Source: a virus
Lineage: Duplodnaviria; Caudoviricetes
DNA: 64,000 nucleotides
Reading direction: 5' to 3' (one strand)
IMG/VR virus record: IMGVR_UViG_3300046786_000293
Coordinates: 274,511-338,510 of that record
Below the pieces are notes generated by a model. That model had not been told where the DNA came from, did not search any database, and was given only the letters and a program-made list of their open reading frames with translations. Each line of letters begins with the position of its first letter. The first letter of the stretch is position 1. Of this stretch, positions 2,410-18,506 are shown one piece after another. The translations under genes were made by a program, and so were the position numbers.

Positions 2410-3276
2410 TTATTTGCCCCAACCATTGCCCCAAAGGTCAACGTGTAAGCGAGGACTGTAGTAGTATCCTCGACTACATGCCCAGTCTGCAACTCGCACA
2501 CGGTTTGCCGCATAAGGAGTGACAACACCACCTTGTGGCATAACGTATACAACACCAGTAAATCCGCCTGCTCTAAATTCTTTTACAGCACGCTCTACTT
2601 CTGCAAAGTGTTCTTCTGTTTCTACAACAAACTTAAGATAAACGGTGCCTAGATTTTGATAACTGGCCACAATATCAGGACAAATTGCTTCCTCCCACTT
2701 TTCGCCGCTTGCACTTAGTTTGGCACTTACACTGAATGTGACTTCTCTCTTAAAGTCTATACCAGGCAGTTGCCACAGTAATAGATATTCTGCAAATTTA
2801 TCTTGCAGACGTTGTGTGCCGTTTGTTTCAAATGTGATATTACGAAGATCCTGCATACCTTCGCGACTTAGCAATTCTTCGTAAGCACGTTGCCAACCCA
2901 GTAGCGGCTCACCGCCTGTAATAACAAGATGTACATCGTTACCGTTGTCTTGCACCCACTTGTGATTGGGTGTTAGTGCAAGCATTTTGTCTACTAGTTC
3001 TTTAGTATCATAATTTGGGCTTAGTTCTTTGAATGCGGGGTGCCAGGATGCATAGCTATCACAGCCGGTGTTGACAAGAGGCAGCTCTTCAAATGTTTTA
3101 TAAAGGTGTATGTTCTTTGCCACCTCGTCGGCTTCTTTGCTCTTACTACCAGGAGCGCAGCCAAAGCCTGCACACGTAAAGTTGCATCCAAACGTTCGAA
3201 GGAAAACGCTAGGAACACCAACAAAACGACCTTCGCCCTGTGCAGAGTAGAATAGTTCACTTACTTTAATCTTCAT
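2410..3276 (-). CDS. queE: 7-carboxy-7-deazaguanine synthase (radical SAM)
   Basis: ELFYSAQGEG, VFLRTFGCNFTC, CDS, VITGGEPLL, ETNGT, SAKL, KFVV, YVMPQ, RLHVDLWG. Confidence 0.92.
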   Translation of the reverse strand: MKIKVSELFYSAQGEGRFVGVPSVFLRTFGCNFTCAGFGCAPGSKSKEADEVAKNIHLYKTFEELPLVNTGCDSYASWHPAFKELSPNYDTKELVDKMLALTPNHKWVQDNGNDVHLVITGGEPLLGWQRAYEELLSREGMQDLRNITFETNGTQRLQDKFAEYLLLWQLPGIDFKREVTFSVSAKLSASGEKWEEAICPDIVASYQNLGTVYLKFVVETEEHFAEVERAVKEFRAGGFTGVVYVMPQGGVVTPYAANRVRVADWACSRGYYYSPRLHVDLWGNGWGK

Positions 3277-4872: not shown

Positions 4873-5526
4873 TTAAAATTCTAAAACAAAATGTGAAGTT
4901 TTTCTATAAACAGTACGTTTTGCCTTTAAACTCATGTTATCAAATAATTCGTCGTCGATTATTCTACAATGCATTTTTTCTGCGTCAGGCCATCCGCTTC
5001 CAATTGCTATAGGATGCATACCTGGATGATTCGCAATACACATTAGTCCACTAAATTGTTTACAGATATTATCCCACACAGGCTCGAATTCTTCTTCGAG
5101 TATATGTTCAATTGATTCTACCATGAGAACTGTGTCAAATTTTGAAAAATCTGCTACAAAATTTTTAACATTGGTTTCTATGACCTTTGGCGGAATAAAC
5201 TCGTCTCCAAAGAACTGTTTACCAGTTCGATCAAACCAATTCTGAATGTTGATTGCTATATCCACCGCAGTAACAGGAATACCTAATTTGGATAAAACAC
5301 ATGATATTTCTCCTCTGCCAGGCCCTATTTCCAATACATGGTTGGGAGTTCTAGTTTTATAATTATTTAAAAATTGCAACTGATCTTCAAGTGTATTACA
5401 CTCGATTAAATCATAAATGCCAAATGCATAACACAAGGCCGGAAACTGATCATTCGACCTTAACATTTTTTTATTCCAATTATCTAAATCAGAATAAAAA
5501 TACCCTTCTTGGTATGCAAAACTCAT
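4873..5526 (-). CDS. class I SAM-dependent methyltransferase
   Basis: VLEIGPGRG motif I, VTAVDIA, ESIEHI; ATGA overlap with the queD stop. Confidence 0.8.
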   Translation of the reverse strand: MSFAYQEGYFYSDLDNWNKKMLRSNDQFPALCYAFGIYDLIECNTLEDQLQFLNNYKTRTPNHVLEIGPGRGEISCVLSKLGIPVTAVDIAINIQNWFDRTGKQFFGDEFIPPKVIETNVKNFVADFSKFDTVLMVESIEHILEEEFEPVWDNICKQFSGLMCIANHPGMHPIAIGSGWPDAEKMHCRIIDDELFDNMSLKAKRTVYRKTSHFVLEF

Positions 5527-6026
5527 GCAAATAAATCCTCGTTCCATTCACGATGACCTTCACGGAATGCCATATTGCTTTGTGTTTCACGCACCTCTAC
5601 ACGATAGCACCATAGTCGTTGTGCTTCTCCTGGCCCCCACAGGTCAGGTATATAAACACCATTGACATACTTGTAAAGCATGTCGGCCAGGCCTTCGCAA
5701 CCCAGTCTCGGTAAGACTACAACCTTGGCCATTTTCTTGGCTTCTAGTAGTTTGTATGTTTCCATTTCAGGATCATCTTGTGCCACAATCAACGTGTGGT
5801 CGAACATATCCTCTAATAACTTCTTCAAGTCTTTCAATCCACCGTAGTCAGCGGCCCAGTTGCGTACATCTAGGTCATTAGTACCAAAGTAAAACTTCAT
5901 TGAAAAACTGTAGCCATGAATTAAGTTACAGTGACTATCGGCACGCCATTGACGATACGCACAGGGAAATGCGTCGTGATATTCTTTGGTGCTTGTGTAT
6001 TTGTAGGTAATTGTTTGATTTGCCAT
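5523..6026 (-). CDS. queD: 6-carboxy-tetrahydropterin synthase (QueD/PTPS), variant active site
   Basis: HCNLIHGY, DYGGLKDLK, FDHTLIV, EGLAD, VEVRET; T-fold signature. Confidence 0.85.
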   Translation of the reverse strand: MANQTITYKYTSTKEYHDAFPCAYRQWRADSHCNLIHGYSFSMKFYFGTNDLDVRNWAADYGGLKDLKKLLEDMFDHTLIVAQDDPEMETYKLLEAKKMAKVVVLPRLGCEGLADMLYKYVNGVYIPDLWGPGEAQRLWCYRVEVRETQSNMAFREGHREWNEDLFA

Positions 6027-6065
6027 CTCTAGTCTCCTTTATGTTAGGTAGCAAGTTTGATGGTA

Positions 6066-6103
6066 TGCAGAATCTTTATAGAGGGATGAATGCCAAGTCC
6101 TCT
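6066..6103 (-). ncRNA. candidate preQ1-I-like riboswitch aptamer in the queD leader
   Basis: AGAGG / 14-nt loop ending CAUC / CCUCU stem, then an AUAAA tail and possible loop-tail pairing (GCA/UGC); directly upstream of the queD RBS. Confidence 0.5.
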
Positions 6104-6111
6104 TGAGTAAG

Positions 6112-6117
6112 TATTTA
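6112..6117 (-). promoter_or_regulatory. late-promoter-like TAAATA box
   Basis: AATAAATA overlapping the PRTase stop codon, just 5' of the candidate riboswitch. Confidence 0.5.
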
Positions 6118-6624
6118 TTCCCACCAACGCTCGTAGGGAAAAACAATCCATTCTTTTTTGCTTTTAGTAATCTCTTCGCCACTAAAGTCTATGGTAACGT
6201 GGGACTTACTGCTAACGTTATCGTATACTACTGCAAATTTTACATTATGATTCCAAACATCTTTCCAACTTGGATCCTTGGGTAAACAACTAGATTGCCA
6301 ATCTTCGATAAGCCAATTAATTGTTTTACCTGTATCATTGATGTCGTCGACAATGAGAATCTTTTTGCGAGCAGTTACCTCAGGCTTGCCGTATTCGTAG
6401 CCAAATGCATCTTCAGCCATCCACAAATTACTTTCGTTAGTTTCGGGCTTGCTGGTTACATGTAGTGCATACATAGGAATATCAAAATAGTGACTAATCA
6501 TAACTGCGGGAATAAGACCACCGCGAGTTAGTCCTACAATATAATCGGGGCGCCAATTACTAATAGCAATGCTTCGACAAATTTTAGCGACCCGGCTATT
6601 ATATTCTTTATTAGTAAGATCCAT
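6115..6624 (-). CDS. type I phosphoribosyltransferase (xanthine/guanine PRT-like)
   Basis: VGLTRGGLIPA and ILIVDDINDTGKT PRPP-binding loop; WIVFPYE. Confidence 0.88.
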   Translation of the reverse strand: MDLTNKEYNSRVAKICRSIAISNWRPDYIVGLTRGGLIPAVMISHYFDIPMYALHVTSKPETNESNLWMAEDAFGYEYGKPEVTARKKILIVDDINDTGKTINWLIEDWQSSCLPKDPSWKDVWNHNVKFAVVYDNVSSKSHVTIDFSGEEITKSKKEWIVFPYERWWE

Positions 6625-6949
6625 GTTGTTCTCGTTCCATTTGTTCTTTAAGATTATGATTAGTGATTATATTACTAAACTTAAGTATAAACATACTAGC
6701 AATACTAGCATCTTCACCATTGAAATGCAATCTACTGCCGCCGAGGCCATTTTGATGATGATGACACCATTTACCTTTGCCGTATGATACGTAAGGTACA
6801 TTATTTTCTTTGCCCCGGCTATTCCAAAAGTGTTCGACTTTTTTATTGCCGCCAATTTGGTCGTACCATTCAACAACTTCGTCGTTGAGTTCTTCTATGT
6901 CTATCCAAATTGGATAAACTACTCGACACCCTGGGGGTAGTGCTATCAT
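6611..6949 (-). CDS. hypothetical protein
   Basis: 112 aa ORF packed in the operon. Confidence 0.65.
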   Translation of the reverse strand: MIALPPGCRVVYPIWIDIEELNDEVVEWYDQIGGNKKVEHFWNSRGKENNVPYVSYGKGKWCHHHQNGLGGSRLHFNGEDASIASMFILKFSNIITNHNLKEQMEREQHGSY

Positions 6950-7395
6950 TTTGCCCTTTCAGACAAATATTGTTCCCACTGTACCCATTGTCCTTTGCGT
7001 AGGAATCCCCATTCGCGTTGTTTTGCTCCGGGCATAAACAATGTCCAACAAGTTACATCAGGATCAAGTTCGATACGATGATAACTGTTTGCACTACAAA
7101 TACGAAAGTGTCCGGGGCCACGCCAATGTTGAAATTCGGCAATCTTAACTCCTTGATTGTTAAACACAGGAGTCCATTCCCAATATCCGCCTTTAAGGAT
7201 AATAGTTGCATAGGGCCAAGGATGATCGTGCAAATCGTCGGGGTCGGACTTAAGAAATTTGTGTAGAAATATGTTAAATGGAAACCGTGTTCTGTCTTTG
7301 AGAAACACATAATAGCGTTCCAAGTAAGGTTCGTTGTTGACACGGTCCATAACAATACGTTTACGACCTAACTTTTCTAGCAATTTAAGAAACAT
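6946..7395 (-). CDS. cupin-fold (DSBH) phage protein
   Basis: LHDHPW...ILKGGYWE...YHRIEL metal-binding His pattern. Confidence 0.65.
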   Translation of the reverse strand: MFLKLLEKLGRKRIVMDRVNNEPYLERYYVFLKDRTRFPFNIFLHKFLKSDPDDLHDHPWPYATIILKGGYWEWTPVFNNQGVKIAEFQHWRGPGHFRICSANSYHRIELDPDVTCWTLFMPGAKQREWGFLRKGQWVQWEQYLSERAK

Positions 7396-10013: not shown

Positions 10014-10019
10014 TATTTA
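10014..10019 (-). promoter_or_regulatory. late-promoter-like TAAATA box
   Basis: GATAAATA; its TAA is the folE stop codon. Confidence 0.45.
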
Positions 10020-10745
10020 TCGTGGTGCAAATTCTTGTTGGAGCTTGATATTGTCAAAGAATTCTTTCTTTGTGCCTGCATCATCTTTAAAAGCACCTCT
10101 TAGAACAGTGGTTTGCGTGAGACTAGAGTGCGCCATAATGCCGCGATTTTCACAGCACCCGTGCGTGGCTTGGATGTAGACCGCAACATCCTTGGAACCA
10201 GTAGCAAACTCAATCTCTCTTGCAATGTCCATGCACAACTCTTCTTGTAGTGTGCCTCGACGAGCGCACCATTGAGCGATGCGACTATACTTCGATAACC
10301 CAATAAGTTTAGGTCCAGCAATAATACCAATATACGCAACACCCGAAACAGGTTGGTGATGATGGCTACACATACTCTTGAGTTCGCTACGAACAACAAG
10401 CATTCCGTCATACTTACCTTCACTATCATTAGGGAACGCAGTAGCATTGGGACTTTGTTCATATCTACCTGCCATAATCTCATTGAAATACATTTTAGCA
10501 AGTCTACGTGCTGTACCTTGACTATTAGGATCAGTCTCTCGATCAATTAGTAGTCGATCAAGCACTAATTCAAATGCTTCTGTTGCTTCGTCGATAAGTT
10601 GGTCCATATGAAACTCATCAACATAATCACTGATGTTGTCTCCAGCCCAGAAACGTTTACCTTCTCGTTTCATTTTAAAACGAAGTACATCTGCCAGGTA
10701 CGCTTCTTCGTAACCACCTGTGTCTAATTCCTTACCGATATCCAT
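10017..10745 (-). CDS. folE: GTP cyclohydrolase I
   Basis: SMCSHH, GLSKYSRIAQW, RGTLQE, ATHGCCENRG, EFF. Confidence 0.95.
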   Translation of the reverse strand: MDIGKELDTGGYEEAYLADVLRFKMKREGKRFWAGDNISDYVDEFHMDQLIDEATEAFELVLDRLLIDRETDPNSQGTARRLAKMYFNEIMAGRYEQSPNATAFPNDSEGKYDGMLVVRSELKSMCSHHHQPVSGVAYIGIIAGPKLIGLSKYSRIAQWCARRGTLQEELCMDIAREIEFATGSKDVAVYIQATHGCCENRGIMAHSSLTQTTVLRGAFKDDAGTKKEFFDNIKLQQEFAPR

Positions 10746-10748
10746 TAA

Positions 10749-11375
10749 TTATTCCTCGATTGTAAATTGCCGCAAATCTGCGTATTCAACATATTTTGGT
10801 TTAGGCTTATTTTCTTTAACGCCCTTTAACAACGCTAACCCCCATTCTGCTTCTTCGGGTCGCGGTTTGTAGTGATAACCTATCTTAAATACTTTTTGAT
10901 CAGTCCACGGTTTAATATTTAGGTCGCGACCGTCATACCGCATACGAATTAATGCTTCATATGCTTGTGCATCGTCTAATAGTATAGCACCACCTCTGCC
11001 TATATGTAAAGGTTTATCGTGTCCAAAACTCAAACATTGAATCATTCCAGGGCGATACATATTTTGTTCTAGTCGACGAGCACTATCCCAAATGCGAGTA
11101 AGTTCGAACTTATACTCGCCAACCCAGTGTTGACGATGTGACACAGTGTCGGGGTAGTACTCGTACTTGATACCTAATTTATGCATGGTCATTGGAATGC
11201 TAATATAGGTATACGGCGTAAATGTACATTGTTTAATGTTGTCGTAGCGCATACACATTTCAATGGCATGGGTACAACAATCAGTCATAATGGCATAAGG
11301 TGCGCCAGTAAACTCTGCCAGTTCTCGTTCGAACTGAAAAATTTTATCAAAACCTGTTAACGAGCTCATTTGCAC
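10749..11375 (-). CDS. short DegT/DnrJ/EryC1/StrS-family PLP-dependent aminotransferase
   Basis: FERELAEFTGAPYAI..DCCTHAI, WDSA, SFGHDKPLHIGRGG (PLP lysine motif); only 208 aa. Confidence 0.75.
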   Translation of the reverse strand: MQMSSLTGFDKIFQFERELAEFTGAPYAIMTDCCTHAIEMCMRYDNIKQCTFTPYTYISIPMTMHKLGIKYEYYPDTVSHRQHWVGEYKFELTRIWDSARRLEQNMYRPGMIQCLSFGHDKPLHIGRGGAILLDDAQAYEALIRMRYDGRDLNIKPWTDQKVFKIGYHYKPRPEEAEWGLALLKGVKENKPKPKYVEYADLRQFTIEE

Positions 11376-12414
11376 TAAAAAACTTTTCCGTTAAATCCAA
11401 TGCCTGTTGTTTAATCAACGGCAAATAACTATCATATTCTTCGATATAGGATGTAATACGATTACAAATATCTGTTTTGTTGGCTACATAACTGTCCCAA
11501 GTAATAGTCCAGTTACTGGGATATTTAAACCGGTCGGTGTACATTTCTGAATAGGACAATCGATCAGGCACCATGGGAATAGCATCTACTAATGCACCTT
11601 CGTAACATCCGATACCCAATGTTTCTTGTAGACTAGCACTGAACACAATCTTTGCTTCGCCGAGAATATTATGATATTCATTCTTTGTTAGTGCTTGATC
11701 CTGACAAACAACAAATTCATACTGGGGCAGTTGTTCTTTAAGATCTCTAAATATTTCAACTTGCTTCTCAGGCGCAATACGATGCGGGAATACAACAAGG
11801 TTGCGCTTAGTCATACCTTTGTATGGAGCAAGAGTTTGGTCCATATACTCCATGGGCCAACCAGTGCGTACAATCTTATCGTTGTCGTGATTTTCTCGCA
11901 AACCAACAATACAACCTAGTAGTTCTTCACAAAACAATTCGATGTGAAAGTCTGTAGCAAAGTAGTTATAATCAATAGCGTGGAAGAAACTCTTCTCTGC
12001 ATGACGTACCCATGGGGTGTTACCAATTAACCGACCTAGAAAGTCGTGGGGATCATAACTACCAGCATGCCACAATGCGTGAATCTTAACTGGTGTGTTA
12101 AGAAGTTCACTCATATACTTTAAGTTTATGATGCCAGGATGCCAAGCATCAGTAAACAAAAAATGATCGCCAGGCTTAACTGCTCCGGAGCAGAATAAAC
12201 GGCCCATTCCTTCAACTTGAGCAGACTTATAGATATTAGTCCCACCAAAGTTAAGAAAAGCACCAGGAGTGGTTGCACTAGGGATATCCGTAGGACCAGC
12301 AAGAATTTGAACATTGTGTCCGGCCTTTCTCAGCAAGTTAGGTACGTGATCTTTCCACTGAGCCGTGTAGCGTGTTTCTACAGGCTCAAGATCTATCAAA
12401 AAGATATTAGCCAT
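11347..12414 (-). CDS. GT-B fold glycosyltransferase (GT4-like)
   Basis: FPHRIAPEKQ and QETLGIGCYEGALVDAIPMVP (EX7E-type C-terminal motif). Confidence 0.8.
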   Translation of the reverse strand: MANIFLIDLEPVETRYTAQWKDHVPNLLRKAGHNVQILAGPTDIPSATTPGAFLNFGGTNIYKSAQVEGMGRLFCSGAVKPGDHFLFTDAWHPGIINLKYMSELLNTPVKIHALWHAGSYDPHDFLGRLIGNTPWVRHAEKSFFHAIDYNYFATDFHIELFCEELLGCIVGLRENHDNDKIVRTGWPMEYMDQTLAPYKGMTKRNLVVFPHRIAPEKQVEIFRDLKEQLPQYEFVVCQDQALTKNEYHNILGEAKIVFSASLQETLGIGCYEGALVDAIPMVPDRLSYSEMYTDRFKYPSNWTITWDSYVANKTDICNRITSYIEEYDSYLPLIKQQALDLTEKFFSANELVNRF

Positions 12415-12610
12415 TTGCTCGTTCGGCTTGTCTCATTTGCCAGTTACGAGTCTTTTCAAATTTGCGATATTGCTCGCTTTTATAAAGATCGCGCTCGTCA
12501 AACTTTAACATATTAAAACGACAGTAATCTTTATACTGCTCAAGATCATCAAAGATCCTGTTGACTTCTGGTTTAATTTTGAGATATTTCTCTACCCATT
12601 TTTCAGCCAT
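12407..12610 (-). CDS. hypothetical protein
   Basis: 67 aa ORF after RBS AAGGA. Confidence 0.65.
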   Translation of the reverse strand: MAEKWVEKYLKIKPEVNRIFDDLEQYKDYCRFNMLKFDERDLYKSEQYRKFEKTRNWQMRQAERANG

Positions 12611-12621
12611 TTTATTTTCCT

Positions 12622-13071
12622 TTAGATTTTAACACTAAGATTAGGTCGGTGAGTTTCATATTTAATAAGTGCGCCGTTTTCACCATCTTCAGCCACTTCA
12701 ATCCAAACTGCCCGATTGGGATACCGTTCAGCAATTTGTAGATATAAGTCATCTGCAATCATTTCGCAGGATTTGTAGTCGAGTTTGAGGATTCCGCCTG
12801 CGTAGAGATTTTCGAGCCAGCGTTTGAATTGGATGAACTCGATGTCTCTGTCATTGTGTACAACATCAATCCACACCCGGAAATGGAAGATATGGCGGTG
12901 AGGACTGCCAAGGAAACTAACGTCATACTCATCGCCCGTCGCAAGTTCGGGTGCTGTTGCGGCTGCTGGATAGCAGTGTATTCCTTCTTTGCGGAAGGTA
13001 ATCCAGATTTTTCGTTCTGCATGTTGCTTGATTCTTTCAACAGTTTCTCGGTCAGTTGCGTTCATTTTCAT
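12622..13071 (-). CDS. dpdL: QueD-paralogue T-fold protein, DpdL-like (putative CDG decarboxylase)
   Basis: EGIH...LGSPHRHIF matches LxxxHRHxF in place of the QueD CxxxHGH motif; DIEFI. Confidence 0.6.
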   Translation of the reverse strand: MKMNATDRETVERIKQHAERKIWITFRKEGIHCYPAAATAPELATGDEYDVSFLGSPHRHIFHFRVWIDVVHNDRDIEFIQFKRWLENLYAGGILKLDYKSCEMIADDLYLQIAERYPNRAVWIEVAEDGENGALIKYETHRPNLSVKI

Positions 13072-13597
13072 CTTCCTCTTCTACTGGAAATACAGTTGTA
13101 TCTCCTACATAATCTTTCCAATCGGTATATACACTACGAGACATTAGTTTATTAAGAGGATGACACCATACGCCAGTATTTGTATCGCCCCAAGTATTAT
13201 CATCAATCTTAACAGTGGCATGGTAGTTATATAGTCTAATATAAGGAATCTTAACACTGATCATGGGAATAAATGTTTTATATTCGCACCATGATTGCTC
13301 ATGTAGATCTCTACAATATTGTACATCAAAGTCTAGTGTAACATAATAGTCTTTAACTAGCAAGGGTTTGATCATGTCATCCCATTGTGCCCAATCGTAA
13401 GGACTGAAGGGATGAAAACTTTGGCTAGTACCAAAGTAGATATGCCGAATCTTATGTTTTTCTGCTAGTTTAACGATTTCGTCTACAGGTTTAATACCTA
13501 CAACGAATAAGGTCGACTCCCCCTTCATGATAGTGTTTTCAACTTCTGTGCCAACGAAGTAATCTACTTGTTGGCGCCCACTTGTATCAATAGCCAT
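13052..13597 (-). CDS. hypothetical protein in the deazaguanine cluster
   Basis: Start moved to MAIDTSG (13597); FVGTEVENT...HIYFGTSQSF. Confidence 0.7.
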   Translation of the reverse strand: MAIDTSGRQQVDYFVGTEVENTIMKGESTLFVVGIKPVDEIVKLAEKHKIRHIYFGTSQSFHPFSPYDWAQWDDMIKPLLVKDYYVTLDFDVQYCRDLHEQSWCEYKTFIPMISVKIPYIRLYNYHATVKIDDNTWGDTNTGVWCHPLNKLMSRSVYTDWKDYVGDTTVFPVEEEDENERN

Positions 13598-14516
13598 TAT
13601 TTTCCCAATAAATGTAGCCCCTGCTATATCCAGCGGGCCTGTTGTTACCGTCTCCGAATGCTTGTTGCCATTCGGTGTTTCTATTATAACCTTTTGTCCA
13701 GAACCTGTCAACTACTAGGTCACCATTTGTAATCCAATATTCGGCATCTTTCATACATTGATAAAATTTATCTGTTCTTGGACTTGGAAATATCATAGTA
13801 CAGGCTTTCCAAAGTAAGTTGCCCCAAGAACCTTCGATTTCTTTTTCGACACCCATAACAATCAATGATTCATTTTTGACAATGTCAAAGTCAAACACTA
13901 TGTTGGTGGGACTAAGATCAATTACAACATCAAATTGACCTGTGTATGTGGGACTCAATTTGTCGCCCCAAAGTTCTTTGTTGCTGTGTCCAAATACAGT
14001 AATTTCGAAATCTAAATGATTAAGCAGGATAGTGTTATAAGCAATCCAAGCAAGAAAGCCACTACCCAGTATTAAGAGTCTGCGGCCTGATCCGCTTCGT
14101 TCGGCAATTTCACGTAAGGGTTGGTGAACAACGTTAATGCCGCAAGCCACTGGTTCCAATATATATCTTGGATGAGCCTCGGGAACAACAACATACTCTC
14201 GATTTCTAACATTGTAAATATCGGCGTAGGCCGGTTCACCTCTTGTTGCAACATAGTCTCCGAATTTGACATCATTTATTTCTGCTCCTATACCAATTAC
14301 TCGGCCTAGTCCTTCATGTCCTTGCATATGCAAAGGTAAAGGACCAAAGTTTCCTAACATCATATCTACATCACTGCGACACACACCAGTCATTACAGCA
14401 CGTACACATATTTCGTCTGGAGCCAATGGCGGAATGTTGTATTCTGTTTCTATAAACTCGCCTTGGCCTGAGGTTGCTAGTACTCTGTTTACAGATTTAT
14501 TCTTTTGTGAATCCAT
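13587..14516 (-). CDS. Zn-dependent alcohol/sugar dehydrogenase (MDR family)
   Basis: GVCRSD, GHEGLG, LEPVAC, ILGSGFLA. Confidence 0.88.
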   Translation of the reverse strand: MDSQKNKSVNRVLATSGQGEFIETEYNIPPLAPDEICVRAVMTGVCRSDVDMMLGNFGPLPLHMQGHEGLGRVIGIGAEINDVKFGDYVATRGEPAYADIYNVRNREYVVVPEAHPRYILEPVACGINVVHQPLREIAERSGSGRRLLILGSGFLAWIAYNTILLNHLDFEITVFGHSNKELWGDKLSPTYTGQFDVVIDLSPTNIVFDFDIVKNESLIVMGVEKEIEGSWGNLLWKACTMIFPSPRTDKFYQCMKDAEYWITNGDLVVDRFWTKGYNRNTEWQQAFGDGNNRPAGYSRGYIYWENNGY

Positions 14517-15364
14517 AGATCCTGCTCAAATTGATTAAGCCAATAGTCGTTATTGGTTCGATTTTCGATGGCTTCTTGAATCATTGCTCGATAAGCATAT
14601 TCAGGACACAAGCCCAGCGGAATCTTGTAATCGTCAAAATAGATAGCAACATCGTCGTGAGTATTACTACGCCAATTTGCTTTAATTGTCCATTTCTTTC
14701 CGTTAACTATACCCTCTAATTCGACACTATCGTCAACATTATAAACACCACTGGGATCAACAGCGCCGTAGTCACTGTCTTTAAGATCATCTAAGTTCCA
14801 GCGTTGCCATACTTGTTTGAATGTCCAGTTGGTATTGTAGTACTGGGGTTCTATAGCAATCATAAGACTTAGTAAATGAGGAAGCAAATCTCTACTTACT
14901 CCGCCGAACGCCATGTCTTTATTAGTAAACCAACTTCCAGGCTTGGGCACACGGTTTTGATTAATCCAATTTAGTTTAATATTATTAGAAGTCTGGTAAT
15001 GCTCGCGCATTTCTTTAAGATTGTCACGCCATTGGTTATTTTTAACCATCATAAAGCGTGTAGTAGTCATATAATCTGTGACCATAGAGCGCCACAGTTC
15101 TGCATCTGGTACACCAGGTTTCTCTACAAATACAATACCTGCTTCGTGAATAGCCGCATGGCGTGCAATGTTTAGATGTGTATAGTTGGGCGTACAGATA
15201 TGTACAGTATCAAATCGACCATGCGCCGAAAAGGCGAACCCATAGTCATAAAAATCTGCGCCCATAGCAGGATTTTGATCCACTGTTATAACTTCGTGGC
15301 CAAGCTCAGTAAGCACGGACTTATAAAGTTGTCCAATGCCCATACCAATAATTAAACTCTTCAT
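14489..15364 (-). CDS. Gfo/Idh/MocA-family NAD-dependent oxidoreductase
   Basis: IIGMGIG, ICTPNYTH, VFVEKP, GGVSRDLLPH. Confidence 0.88.
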   Translation of the reverse strand: MKSLIIGMGIGQLYKSVLTELGHEVITVDQNPAMGADFYDYGFAFSAHGRFDTVHICTPNYTHLNIARHAAIHEAGIVFVEKPGVPDAELWRSMVTDYMTTTRFMMVKNNQWRDNLKEMREHYQTSNNIKLNWINQNRVPKPGSWFTNKDMAFGGVSRDLLPHLLSLMIAIEPQYYNTNWTFKQVWQRWNLDDLKDSDYGAVDPSGVYNVDDSVELEGIVNGKKWTIKANWRSNTHDDVAIYFDDYKIPLGLCPEYAYRAMIQEAIENRTNNDYWLNQFEQDLWIHKRINL

Positions 15365-15609: not shown

Positions 15610-15822
15610 TTATCGATCATCGCCATAGTCGATTGTTTCGTGATCGTGTTCCCATTGCAGTCGTTCGAGTCTACGGATCTCGTCTTTAAGTGCAAGTTTT
15701 TGTTTTTTCCATTCTTGCATCAATTGACTTTCTGTACCTGGATGTTCGCGTTCGTGTTTAATAATACGTTCATCTAAAACTCTGTGGGATTCTTTTAAAT
15801 GTTTAATTCGGCCTTCATACAT
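15610..15822 (-). CDS. DUF465/YdcH-like coiled-coil protein
   Basis: LKESHRVLDERI...WKKQKLALKDEIRRLE pattern. Confidence 0.6.
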   Translation of the reverse strand: MYEGRIKHLKESHRVLDERIIKHEREHPGTESQLMQEWKKQKLALKDEIRRLERLQWEHDHETIDYGDDR

Positions 15823-16957
15823 AAGGATTCTCCAGATTAAATGTTTGACTAAAACTTTGATTTCGAGATAGATCTAGATCTTTTGTAAATTCTGCAAATT
15901 TTTCGACAATCTTTGGTTCGTCACAGGTATTTAATACATTTAATATATTTCTTAAATCATTAATACTGTGTTCTGGGTTGTTTGTTACAGCAGCTAATAA
16001 TTGTATAGATTTTTCTAATTCTTGTCTAGCCCGATTGGATAACTCGCCAGTTAATACATACGGGTTCAAACGTTTAGGCCATTGGCATGTACCAAACCAA
16101 AGTTCTAATGGTCCTTTAGCAAGTTTTTTGGTTTCTATAAAGAACTCTACTACACGACTAATATCTAATACACTATACGCACTGAGGGTTGCATTCATTG
16201 CGACGCTATGCCCTAATTCTAAAATACTTTTTATATTTTTAATAATCACTGGCCAATTGGAGCCGTATCTGATATATTCAGCTGATTTTTCAACGCCATC
16301 TATACTTAATGTCCAATGTACTCTTTTAAAGTGTTTAATTACTTCTAGCCAATCTTGATTCATAACACTACAATTAGTTGTTATTAAAATTTCACAATTA
16401 GTGTTTCCGATCGCAATTAATTCTTCTAATATTTTTAAATTGTCTTTAATTAGTAAAGGTTCGCCGCCCGTAAACAATATTCTATTAACATTACTTAGAT
16501 TATTTTTAATATCTTCTGCAATGTTTTCATATAAGTTTTTTCTAGGTAGTATATTATTATAATATTTCTGAAGAGAAACATTCTCAGTTACTTCTCGTCC
16601 AATACTAGAACTGAAATCAGGACTACACATCCTACAACTAAAATTACATAGATTATTATATCTTAAATCGTAGTACTGTATTTTATGTTCTATATTATCT
16701 TTGTTAAGTAAAGGATAATCTCTTATAGCACTTTGCCTTACGCTGTTCAACCCTTTACTTTCCAACTCGTAGCAACCGTTACAGTGACTGTGCGGTGTGT
16801 CATTTAAAATATTATTTTTAACTTCTTGTAGTTCGGTACTATGTTCAAATTCTGAGGGACTACAAGATTCTTGATAGCCACTGTTACAACACATTTTAAC
16901 ACCAGTTGTTGTTACAAACTGGTGAATCCAAGGTAAAGGGCACCAAACTTTAGACAT
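15815..16957 (-). CDS. radical SAM protein with an N-terminal SPASM/twitch-like Cys cluster
   Basis: CNFSCRMC, FTGGEPLL, LSIDG; N-terminal CPLPW..CC..CNGC. Confidence 0.85.
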   Translation of the reverse strand: MSKVWCPLPWIHQFVTTTGVKMCCNSGYQESCSPSEFEHSTELQEVKNNILNDTPHSHCNGCYELESKGLNSVRQSAIRDYPLLNKDNIEHKIQYYDLRYNNLCNFSCRMCSPDFSSSIGREVTENVSLQKYYNNILPRKNLYENIAEDIKNNLSNVNRILFTGGEPLLIKDNLKILEELIAIGNTNCEILITTNCSVMNQDWLEVIKHFKRVHWTLSIDGVEKSAEYIRYGSNWPVIIKNIKSILELGHSVAMNATLSAYSVLDISRVVEFFIETKKLAKGPLELWFGTCQWPKRLNPYVLTGELSNRARQELEKSIQLLAAVTNNPEHSINDLRNILNVLNTCDEPKIVEKFAEFTKDLDLSRNQSFSQTFNLENPYV

Positions 16958-18506
16958 TTTGTTCTAATTCATCTAGAGCAGACTCGTCTAATCCGCTGTC
17001 GTCGATGTGATGTTCTTCGGGTTCGACTTGATCAAACAAGGAATTAAACATAGTACCAGCGTTAATAGTTTTCTTACCTACTGCTCCACGAGTACCAATG
17101 ATACTTAACCAATATCTATTGTAGTGTTCGATAAGTTTTTCTGCACGACCACGATCACTAGTAGCAAAGATATCATTAACAATATCTCGGAAGAATGTGC
17201 GATCATAGACTCTAAATCCTTTCTTATCCGATGTAGTTGCAACTAACATCTGCGGATATGAGCCGGCGTCATATTGTCTATTTGCTTCTTGCACCGCATG
17301 AATGTGCGTCCATACGTTATGTCCCATCTGTAAAGTATAACTAAAACTGTCCCAGCTGGTTCGACCTTCTTTACCAATTTTGTTTAAGTCTCCGGGTTTG
17401 TAGTGACAAACATCGTTAACAAGCAATCGTTCACTGACTGGACTTTCTAAGAAAGTATCAAATATCTTGTCTTGCAGTACTGCATCTCTAAATGTACGAG
17501 AATCTGTAGCATACTTTTTATTATCTATGCTAGGTTGCATTTGATAACTCCATTTAGCACGATCCGGAGTAACTACATCATAGTAAATTTGTCCATTAGC
17601 AGTTGCTAAAAATGGACTCGCACAGTCGAAACTAATAGTAAAGTTTTCATTGTGATACTTACGCACCGCACGTTGAACATCGGTAAGCAAAGTTGCCCAT
17701 TCGAGTTTACTTGTGCCTAAGAAATGCATCCAGTCATGTAAGCCTGGTTCTAGCAATCCATCGAATCGTAACGCCACAAGTCTACGCAATAGCAAGTGAA
17801 CATCACACATATTTTGTCCACCCATAGCCCAACCTTCGAATGGCTGTGCGTATTGCTTAGGATCGCAGTATTTTTTCATACGTTCATACCAATCGTCAGC
17901 ATCAGTGTGATTTTCACCTTGTAGAACGTTTAAGAACTTGCAACGACCAGTTCGTTTACGCATGAAGTATTCATTATTAATATATGTAGCGTCGACTGCT
18001 TCCTGATATGTGCTAATACCAGTAGCACGTTGACCTGCAGGACTACGTGCAACCCACGCAGGAATATCCAAAATCATACCTCGATCCATATAAGCATCCA
18101 TCCATGCAAGAACTTGTTCACGTTTCTTTTGTGCTTTTGGACAATTAGGATCTTTCCAGTCGCCTTCCCATACACCCTTACCAATTTGAAATCCGCCCGA
18201 GTCCCCTAGTACAAAACTATTAGGATCACGATTGCGAACCATATCTTCCTTGGCATCAAACTTGTTTACATCTAAATTGGCATGACCTGCACTATACAAT
18301 GCCCATTTATAAGGGAAATAGGCTTCTTTAGGATTAAGCCAATTAAGTCCTTCCATGCCATTTTCGAACTTAGCTGGCATACGTTGGGCATCTACGTAAT
18401 TGGGGTCGTGCCGTTGCTTGCCTACGTAGGTTGCATAGAACCCGCTTAACGCTGGCAAGAACACAGCATAGTCATTTTGTTTGCTGGTTAAATTATCAAT
18501 TCTCAT
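16950..18506 (-). CDS. dpdA: DpdA-like 7-deazaguanine DNA transglycosylase (TGT superfamily)
   Basis: GDSGGFQ, MILDIP, NVLQG, WAMGG, MHFLG, SFDCASP and HN TGT motifs; next to folE/queD/queE. Confidence 0.8.
   Translation of the reverse strand: MRIDNLTSKQNDYAVFLPALSGFYATYVGKQRHDPNYVDAQRMPAKFENGMEGLNWLNPKEAYFPYKWALYSAGHANLDVNKFDAKEDMVRNRDPNSFVLGDSGGFQIGKGVWEGDWKDPNCPKAQKKREQVLAWMDAYMDRGMILDIPAWVARSPAGQRATGISTYQEAVDATYINNEYFMRKRTGRCKFLNVLQGENHTDADDWYERMKKYCDPKQYAQPFEGWAMGGQNMCDVHLLLRRLVALRFDGLLEPGLHDWMHFLGTSKLEWATLLTDVQRAVRKYHNENFTISFDCASPFLATANGQIYYDVVTPDRAKWSYQMQPSIDNKKYATDSRTFRDAVLQDKIFDTFLESPVSERLLVNDVCHYKPGDLNKIGKEGRTSWDSFSYTLQMGHNVWTHIHAVQEANRQYDAGSYPQMLVATTSDKKGFRVYDRTFFRDIVNDIFATSDRGRAEKLIEHYNRYWLSIIGTRGAVGKKTINAGTMFNSLFDQVEPEEHHIDDSGLDESALDELEQNV

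Follow-up and report, generated by a model that had tools for sequence, protein, structure and literature searches.

What does a glycosyltransferase do among phage genes for 7-deazaguanine DNA modification? The question is raised by a 64,000-nt stretch of a Caudoviricetes jumbo-phage genome (IMG/VR record IMGVR_UViG_3300046786_000293), hereafter the window. The initial annotation had placed a glycosyltransferase (GT), a PLP aminotransferase, a Zn-dependent dehydrogenase (ADH), a Gfo/Idh/MocA dehydrogenase, DpdL and one unknown between folE and dpdA, and had read them as one amino-sugar module. All of these genes were confirmed; they occupy 10749–15364 of the minus strand, in a run from dpdA (16950–18506) to folE (10017–10745) in which neighbors overlap by 4–29 nt or lie no more than 27 nt apart. 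Additional ORFs in the cluster encode proteins of 67 aa (12407–12610) and 73 aa, a DUF465 protein and a twitch-domain radical SAM protein (15815–16957), and the cluster as a whole is embedded in the replication module. The analysis below shows which genes are present, how their products fold and how the neighborhood is conserved.

The deazaguanine core

FolE (GTP cyclohydrolase I; 10017–10745; PF01227, 133 bits), the enzyme of the first pathway step, is accompanied on the minus strand by QueD (6-carboxytetrahydropterin synthase; 5523–6026; PF01242, 54 bits), 52% identical to ACP17 QueD, and by QueE (7-carboxy-7-deazaguanine synthase; 2410–3276), which tblastn aligns with annotated QueE of BUCT-ZZ01 (46% identity) and of PAC2 and X1 (29–33%). 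The 380-aa radical SAM protein, encoded on the same strand between the Gfo gene and dpdA, is not QueE; it matches twitch-domain family NF033640 (NCBIfam, 283.6 bits), and its gene is an insert specific to this phage, with a 29%-identical gene in only two (L080 and L081) of 80 related loci. The queuosine side-chain genes QueC, QueF, QueA and QueG are absent here.

DpdL (12622–13071, minus strand), a QueD-like T-fold protein and proposed 7-carboxy-7-deazaguanine decarboxylase, is 38–69% identical to DpdL of phiST, ACP17, PA5oct and Phosso, and its LGSPHRHIF motif fits the published LxxxHRHxF (Cui et al. 2023). The 518-aa dpdA product, by comparison, gave no significant match by Pfam, PDB profile search or hhalign against the annotated TGT of Xanthomonas phage X1; we label it DpdA-like because it carries a DSGGFQ motif (LGDSGGFQ) with an invariant D102 and resembles TGT clusters (0.94, 209 shared features) and DpdA PF23859 (0.89) in the language-model similarity of an Atlas feature search. 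The system of Cellulophaga phage phiST, whose DNA contains plain dDG (Cui et al. 2023, NAR), resembles the window in its FolE, QueD, QueE, LxxxHRHxF-bearing DpdL and divergent DpdA, in having no QueC and in its location beside DNA polymerase genes, but it lacks the GT, the 181-aa protein described below and the sugar enzymes, whereas the window has the GT as a fixed member amid variable tailoring genes.

Two more minus-strand genes recur in such clusters. A purine-type phosphoribosyltransferase (6115–6624; PF00156, 49.8 bits), nearest to xanthine and hypoxanthine-guanine enzymes, is also kept in PA5oct and BUCT-ZZ01, and a conserved 149-aa protein (6946–7395), possibly a cupin (HDHPW...H) and with a weak Atlas lead (0.82) to cysteine-dioxygenase-type cupins, is encoded by the gene that immediately follows the GT in many relatives' loci (60–85% identity, tblastn). 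Elsewhere the genome has a single canonical ThyA with no further TS-like gene, and a Tet/JBP search of it gave no match, a result of little weight as control genomes likewise gave none; thus no hydroxymethyl-pyrimidine acceptor is evident.

The glycosyltransferase and its neighborhood

The 355-aa GT (11347–12414, minus strand) has no Pfam match. AF2 confidently predicts a GT-B fold (pLDDT 94, pTM 0.91), as the initial annotation had proposed; the Foldseek neighbors of the model are glycogen synthase, BshA, MshA and PglA (TM 0.61–0.70), and an EX7E motif (E264...E272) is conserved in the alignment, so that the protein appears to be a GT4-like, retaining-type enzyme. Its family comprises 1188 clusters at 50% identity. 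Among the nearest structures are the small-molecule glycosyltransferases BshA, MshA and LmbT; the window GT is acidic (pI 5.5) and has no likeness to known DNA glycosyltransferases beyond the common fold.

Co-occurrence and synteny with dpdA and dpdL, the test proposed for this GT in the initial annotation, proved strongly positive. GT and DpdL share a cluster, mostly as adjacent genes, in seven highly divergent lineages (the window's group, Phosso, PA5oct-like phages, ACP17, Xanthomonas X1/BUDD, Burkholderia BCSR5 and cyanophage BUCT-ZZ01), between which GT identity falls to 24–25%, and DpdA and QueE accompany the GT in every one. DpdL occurs in just 28 of 50,697 phage records, yet all 18 records with a full-length GT match have it. 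In IMG/VR, each of the 80 GT-bearing loci has DpdL/dpdA genes alongside, most often arranged as dpdA, 181-aa gene, DpdL, 67-aa gene, GT; in ACP17 and PA5oct dpdA directly precedes the GT. Among 185,579 prokaryote genome representatives there were four GT matches, all on short phage-like MAG contigs, and the three contigs that extend past the GT gene all have DpdL, folE or dpdA beside it. Across phage records, IMG/VR loci and prokaryote representatives we found no full-length GT homolog outside DpdL-type deazaguanine clusters, and none independent of dpdA. The GT is probably, therefore, a functional part of the deazaguanine pathway, although part of the linkage may be positional because the cluster lies among replication genes. 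Six DpdL lineages lack the GT, and phiST has DpdL and plain dDG without it; the GT is thus not needed for the basic modification.

Of the genes first read as one module, only those for the GT, DpdL and the 181-aa protein form the core. The 67-aa gene (12407–12610, minus strand), whose product has no family match, separates the DpdL and GT genes in the majority of loci from the window's phage group, as judged by tblastn synteny in the 80 IMG/VR loci. The 181-aa protein (13052–13597, minus strand) probably starts at 13597, although its ORF is open to 13711. It is core in the window's group, PA5oct and ACP17, and its alignment has 36 invariant columns, several of them acidic. Its AF2 model (pLDDT 75), a partial beta/alpha barrel, matches no fold clearly; QueE and other radical-SAM half-barrels come closest among named structures (Z 5.5–5.7, TM 0.54–0.57), but the protein has no Cys cluster. 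Upstream of its gene, within the 3' end of the ADH gene, a candidate promoter (13683–13711, minus strand) matches the sigma-70 consensus perfectly (TTGACA-17-TATAAT, 12/12), the only such match in 16 kb, where roughly 0.01 would be expected by chance.

Optional, putative sugar-tailoring enzymes

The predicted aminotransferase (10749–11375, minus strand; PF01041, 51 bits) is DegT/DnrJ/EryC1-like and retains the PLP lysine (SFGHDK) and Asp (WDSA); at 208 aa, however, it is shortened, and its activity is only putative because the C-terminal domain is missing. Lacking a whole domain, it may be inactive. Its profile matches and closest relatives, perosamine synthetase, NtdA and WbpE, are enzymes for 3-keto or 4-keto sugars. 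Homologs also occur in large phage glycosylation clusters elsewhere, as in Flavobacterium phage immuto_2-6A and Synechococcus phage S-SCSM2R, where the multi-GT clusters are unrelated to deazaguanine genes; further sugar genes lie elsewhere in the window's own genome.

The 309-aa medium-chain ADH (13587–14516, minus strand; ADH_N, 38 bits) has invariant catalytic-zinc motifs (GVCRSD and GHEG), lacks the structural-zinc lobe and has a 37%-identical homolog in PA5oct. Its gene is always paired with that of the 291-aa Gfo oxidoreductase (14489–15364, minus strand), which scores just under the Pfam cut-off (22.6 bits), has invariant EKP and D-x-x-x-H motifs and by its profile is closest to glycoside 3-dehydrogenases: its best PDB match is DgpA (7xr9, E 8.9e-12; next best 9e-8). 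The match matters for the reading below, as DgpA oxidizes sugars that an aglycone already carries.

These likenesses make the proposed tailoring logic of dehydrogenase, DegT enzyme and GT plausible, but the genes do not behave as the single module first envisaged. The Gfo/ADH pair, present in 21 of 65 related loci, and DegT, present in 7 of 56 scorable ones, are separate optional add-ons found in about a third and about a tenth of loci. Gfo/ADH often occurs without DegT, and DegT once without Gfo/ADH (L025), so an oxidize-then-aminate pairing is not obligatory. The slot beside the GT, held by DegT in the window, is occupied by a UDP-glucose/GDP-mannose dehydrogenase in four relatives (L010, L030, L033 and L078), as expected if the sugar donor is being customized, and other relatives have UDP-sugar dehydrogenases, oxygenases or a halogenase where the window has its add-on genes; variable tailoring genes of the clusters also include methyltransferases and radical SAM enzymes. 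DgpA, NtdC/NtdA (kanosamine) and WbpB/WbpE, the best PDB matches of the window pair, likewise combine a Gfo/Idh/MocA oxidoreductase with a DegT-family aminotransferase; in the window, by contrast, the aminotransferase is half-length, its pairing varies among relatives, and the cluster has no phosphatase (NtdB) or nucleotidyltransferase. The suggested analogy with aminocyclitols gained no specific support.

A proposed pathway and its alternatives

We propose that FolE, QueD and QueE would convert GTP to 7-carboxy-7-deazaguanine, with no QueC step, that DpdL would turn this into C7-unsubstituted, or otherwise altered, 7-deazaguanine, and that the DpdA-like transglycosylase would exchange guanine in DNA for the product. 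The GT would add a hexose from a nucleotide sugar, either to the free base before insertion or to the base in DNA, plausibly at N2, C7 or an added hydroxyl. In this phage the DgpA-like Gfo enzyme could then oxidize a hydroxyl of the attached sugar, probably at C3, to a ketone, the shortened DegT-type enzyme could convert the keto-sugar to an amino-sugar, and the ADH could catalyze another redox reaction; the scheme predicts an amino-hexose-bearing DNA base that would block restriction enzymes. We infer acceptor, donor, attachment atom and order of steps. Unsubstituted 7-deazaguanine has no hydroxyl, so an O-glycoside presupposes an additional hydroxylation, and N- or C-glycosides are unusual products for a GT4-type retaining enzyme, which counts against the scheme, as do the acidic GT, the truncated DegT, the GT-less DpdL phages and the variable DegT–Gfo pairing. 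We give even odds to a GT-added hexose on a DpdL-dependent 7-deazaguanine followed by lineage-specific tailoring (here 3-oxidation and amination), and likewise to a sugar on the final DNA base; that this is an amino sugar in this phage is a tentative suggestion, and rather doubtful.

Described systems match parts of the scheme. For mannosyl- and galactosyl-queuosine in animal tRNA, where QTMAN/GTDC1 is a GT4-type enzyme, a GT-B enzyme acts on a 7-deazaguanine derivative in nucleic acid, as proposed here, but in tRNA the sugar goes onto queuosine's cyclopentenediol, and the window lacks the side-chain genes. The T-even alpha- and beta-glucosyltransferases are likewise phage GT-B enzymes that use a nucleotide sugar on a non-canonical base to evade restriction; they have no detectable sequence relationship to the window GT, and their acceptor is a hydroxymethyl on a pyrimidine made before replication, whereas the one proposed here is a purine analog without an obvious hydroxyl, inserted after replication. 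Huimycin and dapiramicin are precedents for glycosylated 7-deazapurines with an N2-linked sugar (PMC7439116); as described, their FolE/QueD/QueE core and GT (HuiG), which puts the sugar directly on the base, resemble the window, but they are free actinomycete metabolites, derived from QueC-dependent preQ0 after O-methylation, with no DNA transglycosylase.

The GT could instead act on a small-molecule intermediate, leaving plain dDG in DNA, which we regard as unlikely. The sugar could protect or activate free deazaguanine transiently and be removed before or during insertion, or the product could be a pterin glycoside, with a PTPS-like DpdL producing a pterin whose side chain is hydroxylated and the dehydrogenases in a role similar to that of sepiapterin reductase. 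FolE, a PTPS-like T-fold, reductases and a GT4-like GT do follow the gene logic of tetrahydrobiopterin glycosides, pteridine glycosyltransferases are members of this broad GT-B group (PMC5683033), and the decarboxylase activity of DpdL is itself a proposal (Cui et al. 2023); an acidic GT whose nearest structural neighbors take small-molecule acceptors would also fit. A phage has no obvious use for a pterin glycoside, however, the dehydrogenases are missing from two thirds of loci, a canonical QueD is present as well, and DpdA and QueE accompany the GT in all seven lineages.

It is quite improbable that the sugar genes serve virion proteins, the host envelope or another non-DNA target and are co-located through expression timing or genome position: the GT is missing from phages without DpdL and stays in DpdL-type clusters, directly after dpdA in ACP17 and PA5oct, though the surrounding gene order is reshuffled between lineages. 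What speaks for such targets is that DegT homologs sit apart from deazaguanine genes in immuto_2-6A and S-SCSM2R and that this genome has sugar genes elsewhere. We consider it very unlikely that the cluster makes a diffusible, huimycin-like nucleoside analog poisoning the host or competing phages; huimycin and dapiramicin do show that a deazapurine base and a GT can yield such compounds (PMC7439116), and the variable halogenase, oxygenase, methyltransferase and radical SAM genes recall natural-product clusters, but a DpdA-like DNA transglycosylase is never missing, the cluster lies among replication genes, and PA5oct DNA itself resists G-specific restriction enzymes (PMC12191111).

PA5oct, which carries the GT, Gfo, ADH and a 181-aa gene directly following Gfo-ADH, has a modified G of unknown structure and is subject to restriction by nucleases that recognize hypermodified bases (PMC12191111). 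Further enzymes are perhaps needed beyond DpdL and DpdA, as dDG was not reconstituted with the ACP17 pair (Cui et al. 2023). We found no published description of a glycosylated-deazaguanine module of this kind; a GT fixed in the cluster, together with amino-sugar tailoring enzymes, points to an undescribed sugar-decorated DNA base.

Gene content of the deazaguanine run

The 338.5-kb source record is estimated to be 97% complete, and the window forms its right end. The initial annotation's observation of a deazaguanine run with embedded sugar genes is real: the genes of the region all lie on the minus strand in a nearly gap-free series, adjacent ORFs overlapping by 4-29 nt or standing at most 27 nt apart. 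In transcription order, the run opens with a dpdA-like gene (16950-18506) and continues with a twitch-domain radical SAM gene (15815-16957), a DUF465 ORF and a 73-aa ORF, a Gfo/Idh/MocA oxidoreductase (Gfo; 14489-15364), a Zn-dependent medium-chain dehydrogenase (ADH; 13587-14516), a conserved 181-aa protein of no assigned function (13052-13597, in an ORF open to 13711), the 149-aa DpdL (12622-13071), a 67-aa ORF, a 355-aa glycosyltransferase (GT; 11347-12414), a 208-aa DegT-like protein (10749-11375) and FolE (10017-10745; Pfam). Downstream of folE, on the same strand, are genes for a conserved cupin-like 149-aa protein (6946-7395) and a xanthine/guanine-type phosphoribosyltransferase (6115-6624), followed by QueD (Pfam) and QueE (2410-3276; tblastn to annotated QueE genes). 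The gene list of the initial annotation holds for the genes that it named but has no entry for the small ORFs or for the radical SAM gene. The 380-aa product of the latter was considered as QueE and rejected, being a twitch-domain radical SAM protein (NF033640, 283 bits), with QueE proper encoded at 2410-3276. The gene is almost unique to the window's phage; in Synechococcus phage S-SCSM2R a radical SAM gene directly follows the short DegT homologue, and in two uncultured relatives (L017 and L079) a 600-aa B12-binding radical SAM gene follows DegT.

DpdL is a QueD-like T-fold protein proposed to decarboxylate 7-carboxy-7-deazaguanine (CDG). That of the window is 38% identical to DpdL of Cellulophaga phage phiST and carries LGSPHRHIF, an instance of the LxxxHRHxF that replaces the CxxxHGH of QueD (Cui et al. 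2023). Further marks of a DpdL-type cluster are present too, FolE, QueD and QueE being encoded in the window and QueC missing from the 338.5-kb genome, whose best match to the QueC profile (25.5 bits, partial, profile positions 2-63 of 210) falls in a 323-aa ORF far from the cluster (G000:C1:108345-108527, in coordinates of the whole record) that is probably another PP-loop ATPase. We call the first gene of the run dpdA on the strength of an invariant DSGGFQ motif and of ESM Atlas language-model features that place its product nearest TGT and DpdA clusters, a putative assignment, with no significant match from the sequence-profile methods (Pfam, a PDB profile search and hhalign against the TGT of Xanthomonas phage X1). 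PHROGs and NCBIfam offered no name for DpdL, the 181-aa protein or dpdA. The phosphoribosyltransferase is conserved in the clusters of the window's group, Pseudomonas phage PA5oct and cyanophage BUCT-ZZ01; it could recycle guanine freed by DpdA exchange or make a deazaguanine nucleotide. The cupin-like protein, with an HDHPW...H pattern that is 60-85% conserved, is encoded directly after GT in many relatives, and a weak ESM Atlas lead connects it to cysteine-dioxygenase-type cupins; it may be a cupin acting as a hydroxylase or a sugar isomerase.

Acidic residues are frequent among the 36 invariant positions of the 181-aa protein, which is predicted to form a partial beta/alpha barrel. Fold searches (PDB-wide VIA-align, AFDB clusters, ESM Atlas) returned tied middling matches with no clear best, among which a QueE-like half-barrel recurs, a lead but no assignment. 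Its homologues in loci L007-L086 of IMG/VR (alignment A1) fall into two sequence subtypes, LDFD and LDIP: Gfo and ADH accompany 11 of the 15 LDFD proteins and none of the 28 LDIP proteins, a suggestive association (Fisher p 2e-7, uncorrected for relatedness).

Promoter and terminator counts in the region are no higher than in shuffled controls. A perfect TTGACA-17-TATAAT lies at 13683-13711 on the minus strand, within the end of the ADH gene and just upstream of the core genes for the 181-aa protein, DpdL, GT, DegT and FolE; this sigma-70-like consensus would be consistent with insertion of Gfo-ADH upstream of an older core operon. Rfam found no match anywhere in the window at gathering thresholds; upstream of queD, at 6024-6117, relaxing the threshold to E <= 1 over 351 nt brought up nothing either.

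A GT4-like enzyme that travels with DpdL

Sequence searches said little about GT: the single sequence matched nothing in Pfam (E <= 0.01), PHROGs, NCBIfam or the PDB, and its profile found in the PDB only a weak best match, the glucoside glucosyltransferase 8xsg (E 2.5e-4). We therefore placed it by fold. AlphaFold2, given an alignment of 30 diverse homologues, predicts a GT-B fold of two Rossmann domains (pLDDT 94), and Foldseek pairs this model with glycogen synthase, BshA, MshA and PglA at probability 1.00 and TM 0.61-0.70; with LmbT also among them, the nearest structures are retaining GT4-type enzymes. The C-terminal domain contains an EX7E motif, E264-TLGIGCY-E272, in which, across the 30 homologues, E272 never varies and E264 is conserved to 90% or more. 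Since GT does not match Glycos_transf_1 (PF00534) or any other Pfam family, we label it GT4-like, a distant outlier, rather than a GT4 member. Outside the window the genome encodes another glycosyltransferase, this one a canonical Glycos_transf_1 protein (72 bits), and a nucleotidyltransferase-domain protein (G000:C1:165920-166309 and G000:C1:20912-21253); the sugar metabolism of the phage therefore extends beyond the deazaguanine cluster to genes unconnected with it. Glycosylation of a hydroxymethyl-pyrimidine by GT was considered and rejected: a single, canonical ThyA (365 bits) is encoded, and a Tet/JBP search found no match, though it matched nothing in control genomes either.

The distribution of GT ties it to deazaguanine genes. 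tblastn of 50,697 phage records found it in 23, with 18 full-length matches from six cultured lineages: Sinorhizobium phage Phosso, PA5oct-like Pseudomonas jumbo phages, Acidovorax phage ACP17, Xanthomonas phages X1 and BUDD, Burkholderia phage BCSR5 and cyanophage BUCT-ZZ01. In all six, GT is clustered with DpdL, FolE, QueE and a TGT-like gene, mostly abutting DpdL or dpdA, even where GT identity has fallen to 24-25% and gene order has been reshuffled. The remaining five matches are partial (65% coverage) and represent a different glycosyltransferase beside GlmS-like and deacetylase genes. DpdL itself occurs in 28 phage records, 18 of them with GT; six DpdL lineages do without it, including the Cellulophaga phages whose DNA was measured to contain plain 7-deazaguanine (dDG), so that GT is a feature of a subset of DpdL clusters. 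Rhizobium phage RHph_I1_18 likewise has DpdL and lacks GT. IMG/VR holds 350 stretches encoding GT relatives, and in all 80 loci examined from these GT adjoins deazaguanine genes, the order in loci long enough to display it being clamp, dpdA, 181-aa gene, DpdL, 67-aa gene, GT. Among 185,579 prokaryote species representatives, the only matches, obtained with a 7-sequence GT alignment (the single protein matched nothing), are four short MAG contigs, and the three that reach past the GT gene all show a deazaguanine context. The check proposed in the initial annotation was whether GT keeps company with dpdA and dpdL; the phage records, the IMG/VR loci and the prokaryote representatives all bear this out, and no full-length GT independent of dpdA turned up among them. 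As far as we searched, the literature does not describe this linkage.

Variable sugar-tailoring genes around a conserved core

The genes flanking GT in the window encode plausible sugar enzymes. The DegT-like protein matches PF01041 (51 bits, cut-off 19.8), and its invariant K121, the PLP lysine, and D97 line up with the catalytic motif in enzymes of known structure. At 208 aa it departs from the two-domain architecture of ~360-400 aa, lacking ~40 large-domain residues and the entire C-terminal domain; all homologues (196-215 aa) share this shortness and thus form a distinct short subfamily of putative aminotransferases. The best solved relatives of the profile are perosamine synthetase, NtdA and WbpE, and the short homologues in phages immuto_2-6A and S-SCSM2R sit in large glycosylation clusters, not deazaguanine clusters. 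Manufacture of preQ1 from a 7-formyl intermediate by the aminotransferase and dehydrogenases is unsupported, given these sugar-cluster relatives and sugar-aminotransferase matches. The Gfo enzyme has features invariant in 12 homologues (a G7/G9/G11 Rossmann motif, E81-K82-P83 and D159...H163); its single sequence scores 22.6 bits against a Pfam cut-off of 24, and its profile finds DgpA as the best PDB match (E 8.9e-12), four orders of magnitude ahead of the next. DgpA, itself a dehydrogenase, works on C- and O-glycosides, whose sugar it oxidises at the 3-hydroxyl. ADH matches the GroES-like domain ADH_N (38 bits, cut-off 23.5), retains invariant catalytic-zinc ligands (C46, H67, E68) and lacks the structural-zinc lobe.

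These genes come and go between relatives. In 65 loci spanning dpdA to GT, closely related loci included, 34 have no Gfo, ADH or DegT, and nine more lack Gfo and ADH but are too short for DegT to be scored; 13 have Gfo and ADH only, with two more carrying the pair and DegT unscorable; six have all three, and one (L025) has DegT alone. Gfo and ADH always occur together, between dpdA and the 181-aa gene, and in PA5oct they form with the 181-aa gene a trio 26 kb from the dpdA-GT-DpdL cluster. Phage PAC2 also carries GT, Gfo, ADH and the 181-aa gene, whereas ACP17 is listed with GT and the 181-aa gene. The DegT slot, directly after GT, is taken in four loci by a short UDP-glucose/GDP-mannose dehydrogenase of 258-307 aa (L010:11915-12721, L030:8234-9031, L033:11948-12871, L078:11101-11877), which suggests a uronic-acid donor in those phages. 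In other uncultured relatives, a flavin-dependent halogenase (L054:6026-7567, identical in L058; PF04820, 332 bits) with GGGSSG and WLWNIP motifs (GxGxxG and WxWxIP) or a weaker homologue (L068:6759-7979, also in L071 and L076) is encoded between dpdA/ADH and the 181-aa gene and may halogenate the pyrrole carbon of 7-deazaguanine. Further variable inserts are 2OG-Fe(II) oxygenases, a B12-binding radical SAM enzyme, methyltransferases and, in some relatives, an IMPDH/GMP-reductase homologue (L022:11905-13011, 228 bits), another link to guanine nucleotide supply. This distribution describes a conserved deazaguanine and GT core ringed by tailoring genes that differ between lineages, several of them for enzymes with nucleotide sugars or glycosides as substrates. 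The amino-sugar reading of the initial annotation is partly supported, in a sharper form with GT as the conserved element; the module as a single unit does not hold, Gfo/ADH and DegT being accessories. In the kanosamine pathway NtdABC, to which the initial annotation pointed, an NtdC-type dehydrogenase, an NtdA-type aminotransferase and the NtdB phosphatase jointly act on glucose-6-phosphate: NtdA is among the best PDB matches of the aminotransferase profile, but no phosphatase is seen in the window cluster, and Gfo and DegT are not obligatorily paired in relatives.

A predicted glycosylated deazaguanine

From the observed gene content, folds and conserved neighbourhood we infer the following steps. 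FolE, QueD and QueE would convert GTP to CDG, DpdL would remove or alter its C7 carboxyl, and DpdA would put the resulting base into DNA; GT would move a hexose from a nucleotide sugar onto the deazaguanine, either as the free base or within DNA. In the window's phage, the DgpA-like Gfo enzyme would then oxidise the sugar once attached, with C3 the probable site, amination of a keto-sugar would fall to the short DegT, and the Zn-dehydrogenase would supply a further redox step, while the phosphoribosyltransferase may return exchange-released guanine to GMP and hence to the pathway substrate. That GT belongs to the deazaguanine pathway is likely; whether the DNA base carries a sugar we regard as evenly balanced, and an amino sugar on that base in the window's phage as doubtful. 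A glycosylated base is at this stage a prediction from sequence and predicted folds. To our knowledge, each of the eight 7-deazaguanine bases described from phage DNA is small and lacks a sugar, and glycosylated DNA bases are known only for the pyrimidines hmC, hmU and base J. Our literature searches found no glycosylated deazaguanine in phage DNA.

GT could instead act on a pterin or a transient base intermediate, in the manner of pteridine glycosyltransferase, leaving plain dDG in the DNA, an explanation that we consider unlikely. We think it quite unlikely that the sugar genes act on something other than DNA, which would be hard to reconcile with the exclusive and deep synteny of GT with the deazaguanine cluster. 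Production of a diffusible, huimycin-like compound would leave the ever-present DpdA hard to explain, as it would the DNA of PA5oct, which resists cleavage at several restriction sites containing G and is attacked by nucleases sensing hypermodified G (PMC12191111, END-nuclease preprint); we hold it to be very improbable. The modified base of PA5oct was not identified in that preprint (PMC12191111).

If a sugar is attached to the deazaguanine, its position could be (i) N2, which has precedent in huimycin and dapiramicin (PMC7439116), (ii) an added hydroxyl, or (iii) C7. An O-link would require a hydroxylase, for which the cupin-like protein or the 2OG oxygenases of relatives are candidates. Attachment at C7 would account for the dependence of GT on DpdL, the C-glycoside-dehydrogenase relative and the halogenase in some clusters; we know of no retaining GT4-type C-glycosyltransferases. 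At its boldest, this argument would make DpdL-type clusters a combinatorial source of DNA 7-deazaguanines derivatised at C7: loss of the carboxyl group would lay open an electron-rich pyrrole carbon, which phages would variously glycosylate (possibly as a C-glycoside), halogenate or hydroxylate, the window's phage ending with C-linked 3-amino-hexosyl-7-deazaguanine. It fits a Gfo nearest a C-/O-glycoside 3-dehydrogenase, a halogenase in some relatives and 2OG oxygenases in others, and remains a speculative proposal to which we give a small chance.

The eight deazaguanine derivatives in the list of Cui et al. (2023) are all free of sugar; these authors mention no glycosyltransferase and, having failed to reconstitute dDG from DpdL and DpdA of either phiST or ACP17, suggest that extra enzymes may be required. 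GT offers a lead on that failure with the ACP17 proteins and on the G modification of PA5oct, a therapeutic-candidate jumbo phage. Since the module is present in at least six phages in culture, the prediction is directly testable; the phenomenon would be widespread, given a GT family that comprises more than 1000 clusters at 50% identity (1188) and was found only in phage-type clusters. A glycosylated deazaguanine, if real, would add a new chemical class to the known DNA modifications, relevant to restriction and CRISPR evasion, to defences that sense hypermodified G, to the sequencing of such DNA and to enzymatic DNA labelling. Were derivatisation at C7 to prove correct, a purine analogue bearing a sugar would be known from DNA for the first time, and the window's phage would belong to a large family of uncultured jumbo phages that is abundant and has diverse variants.
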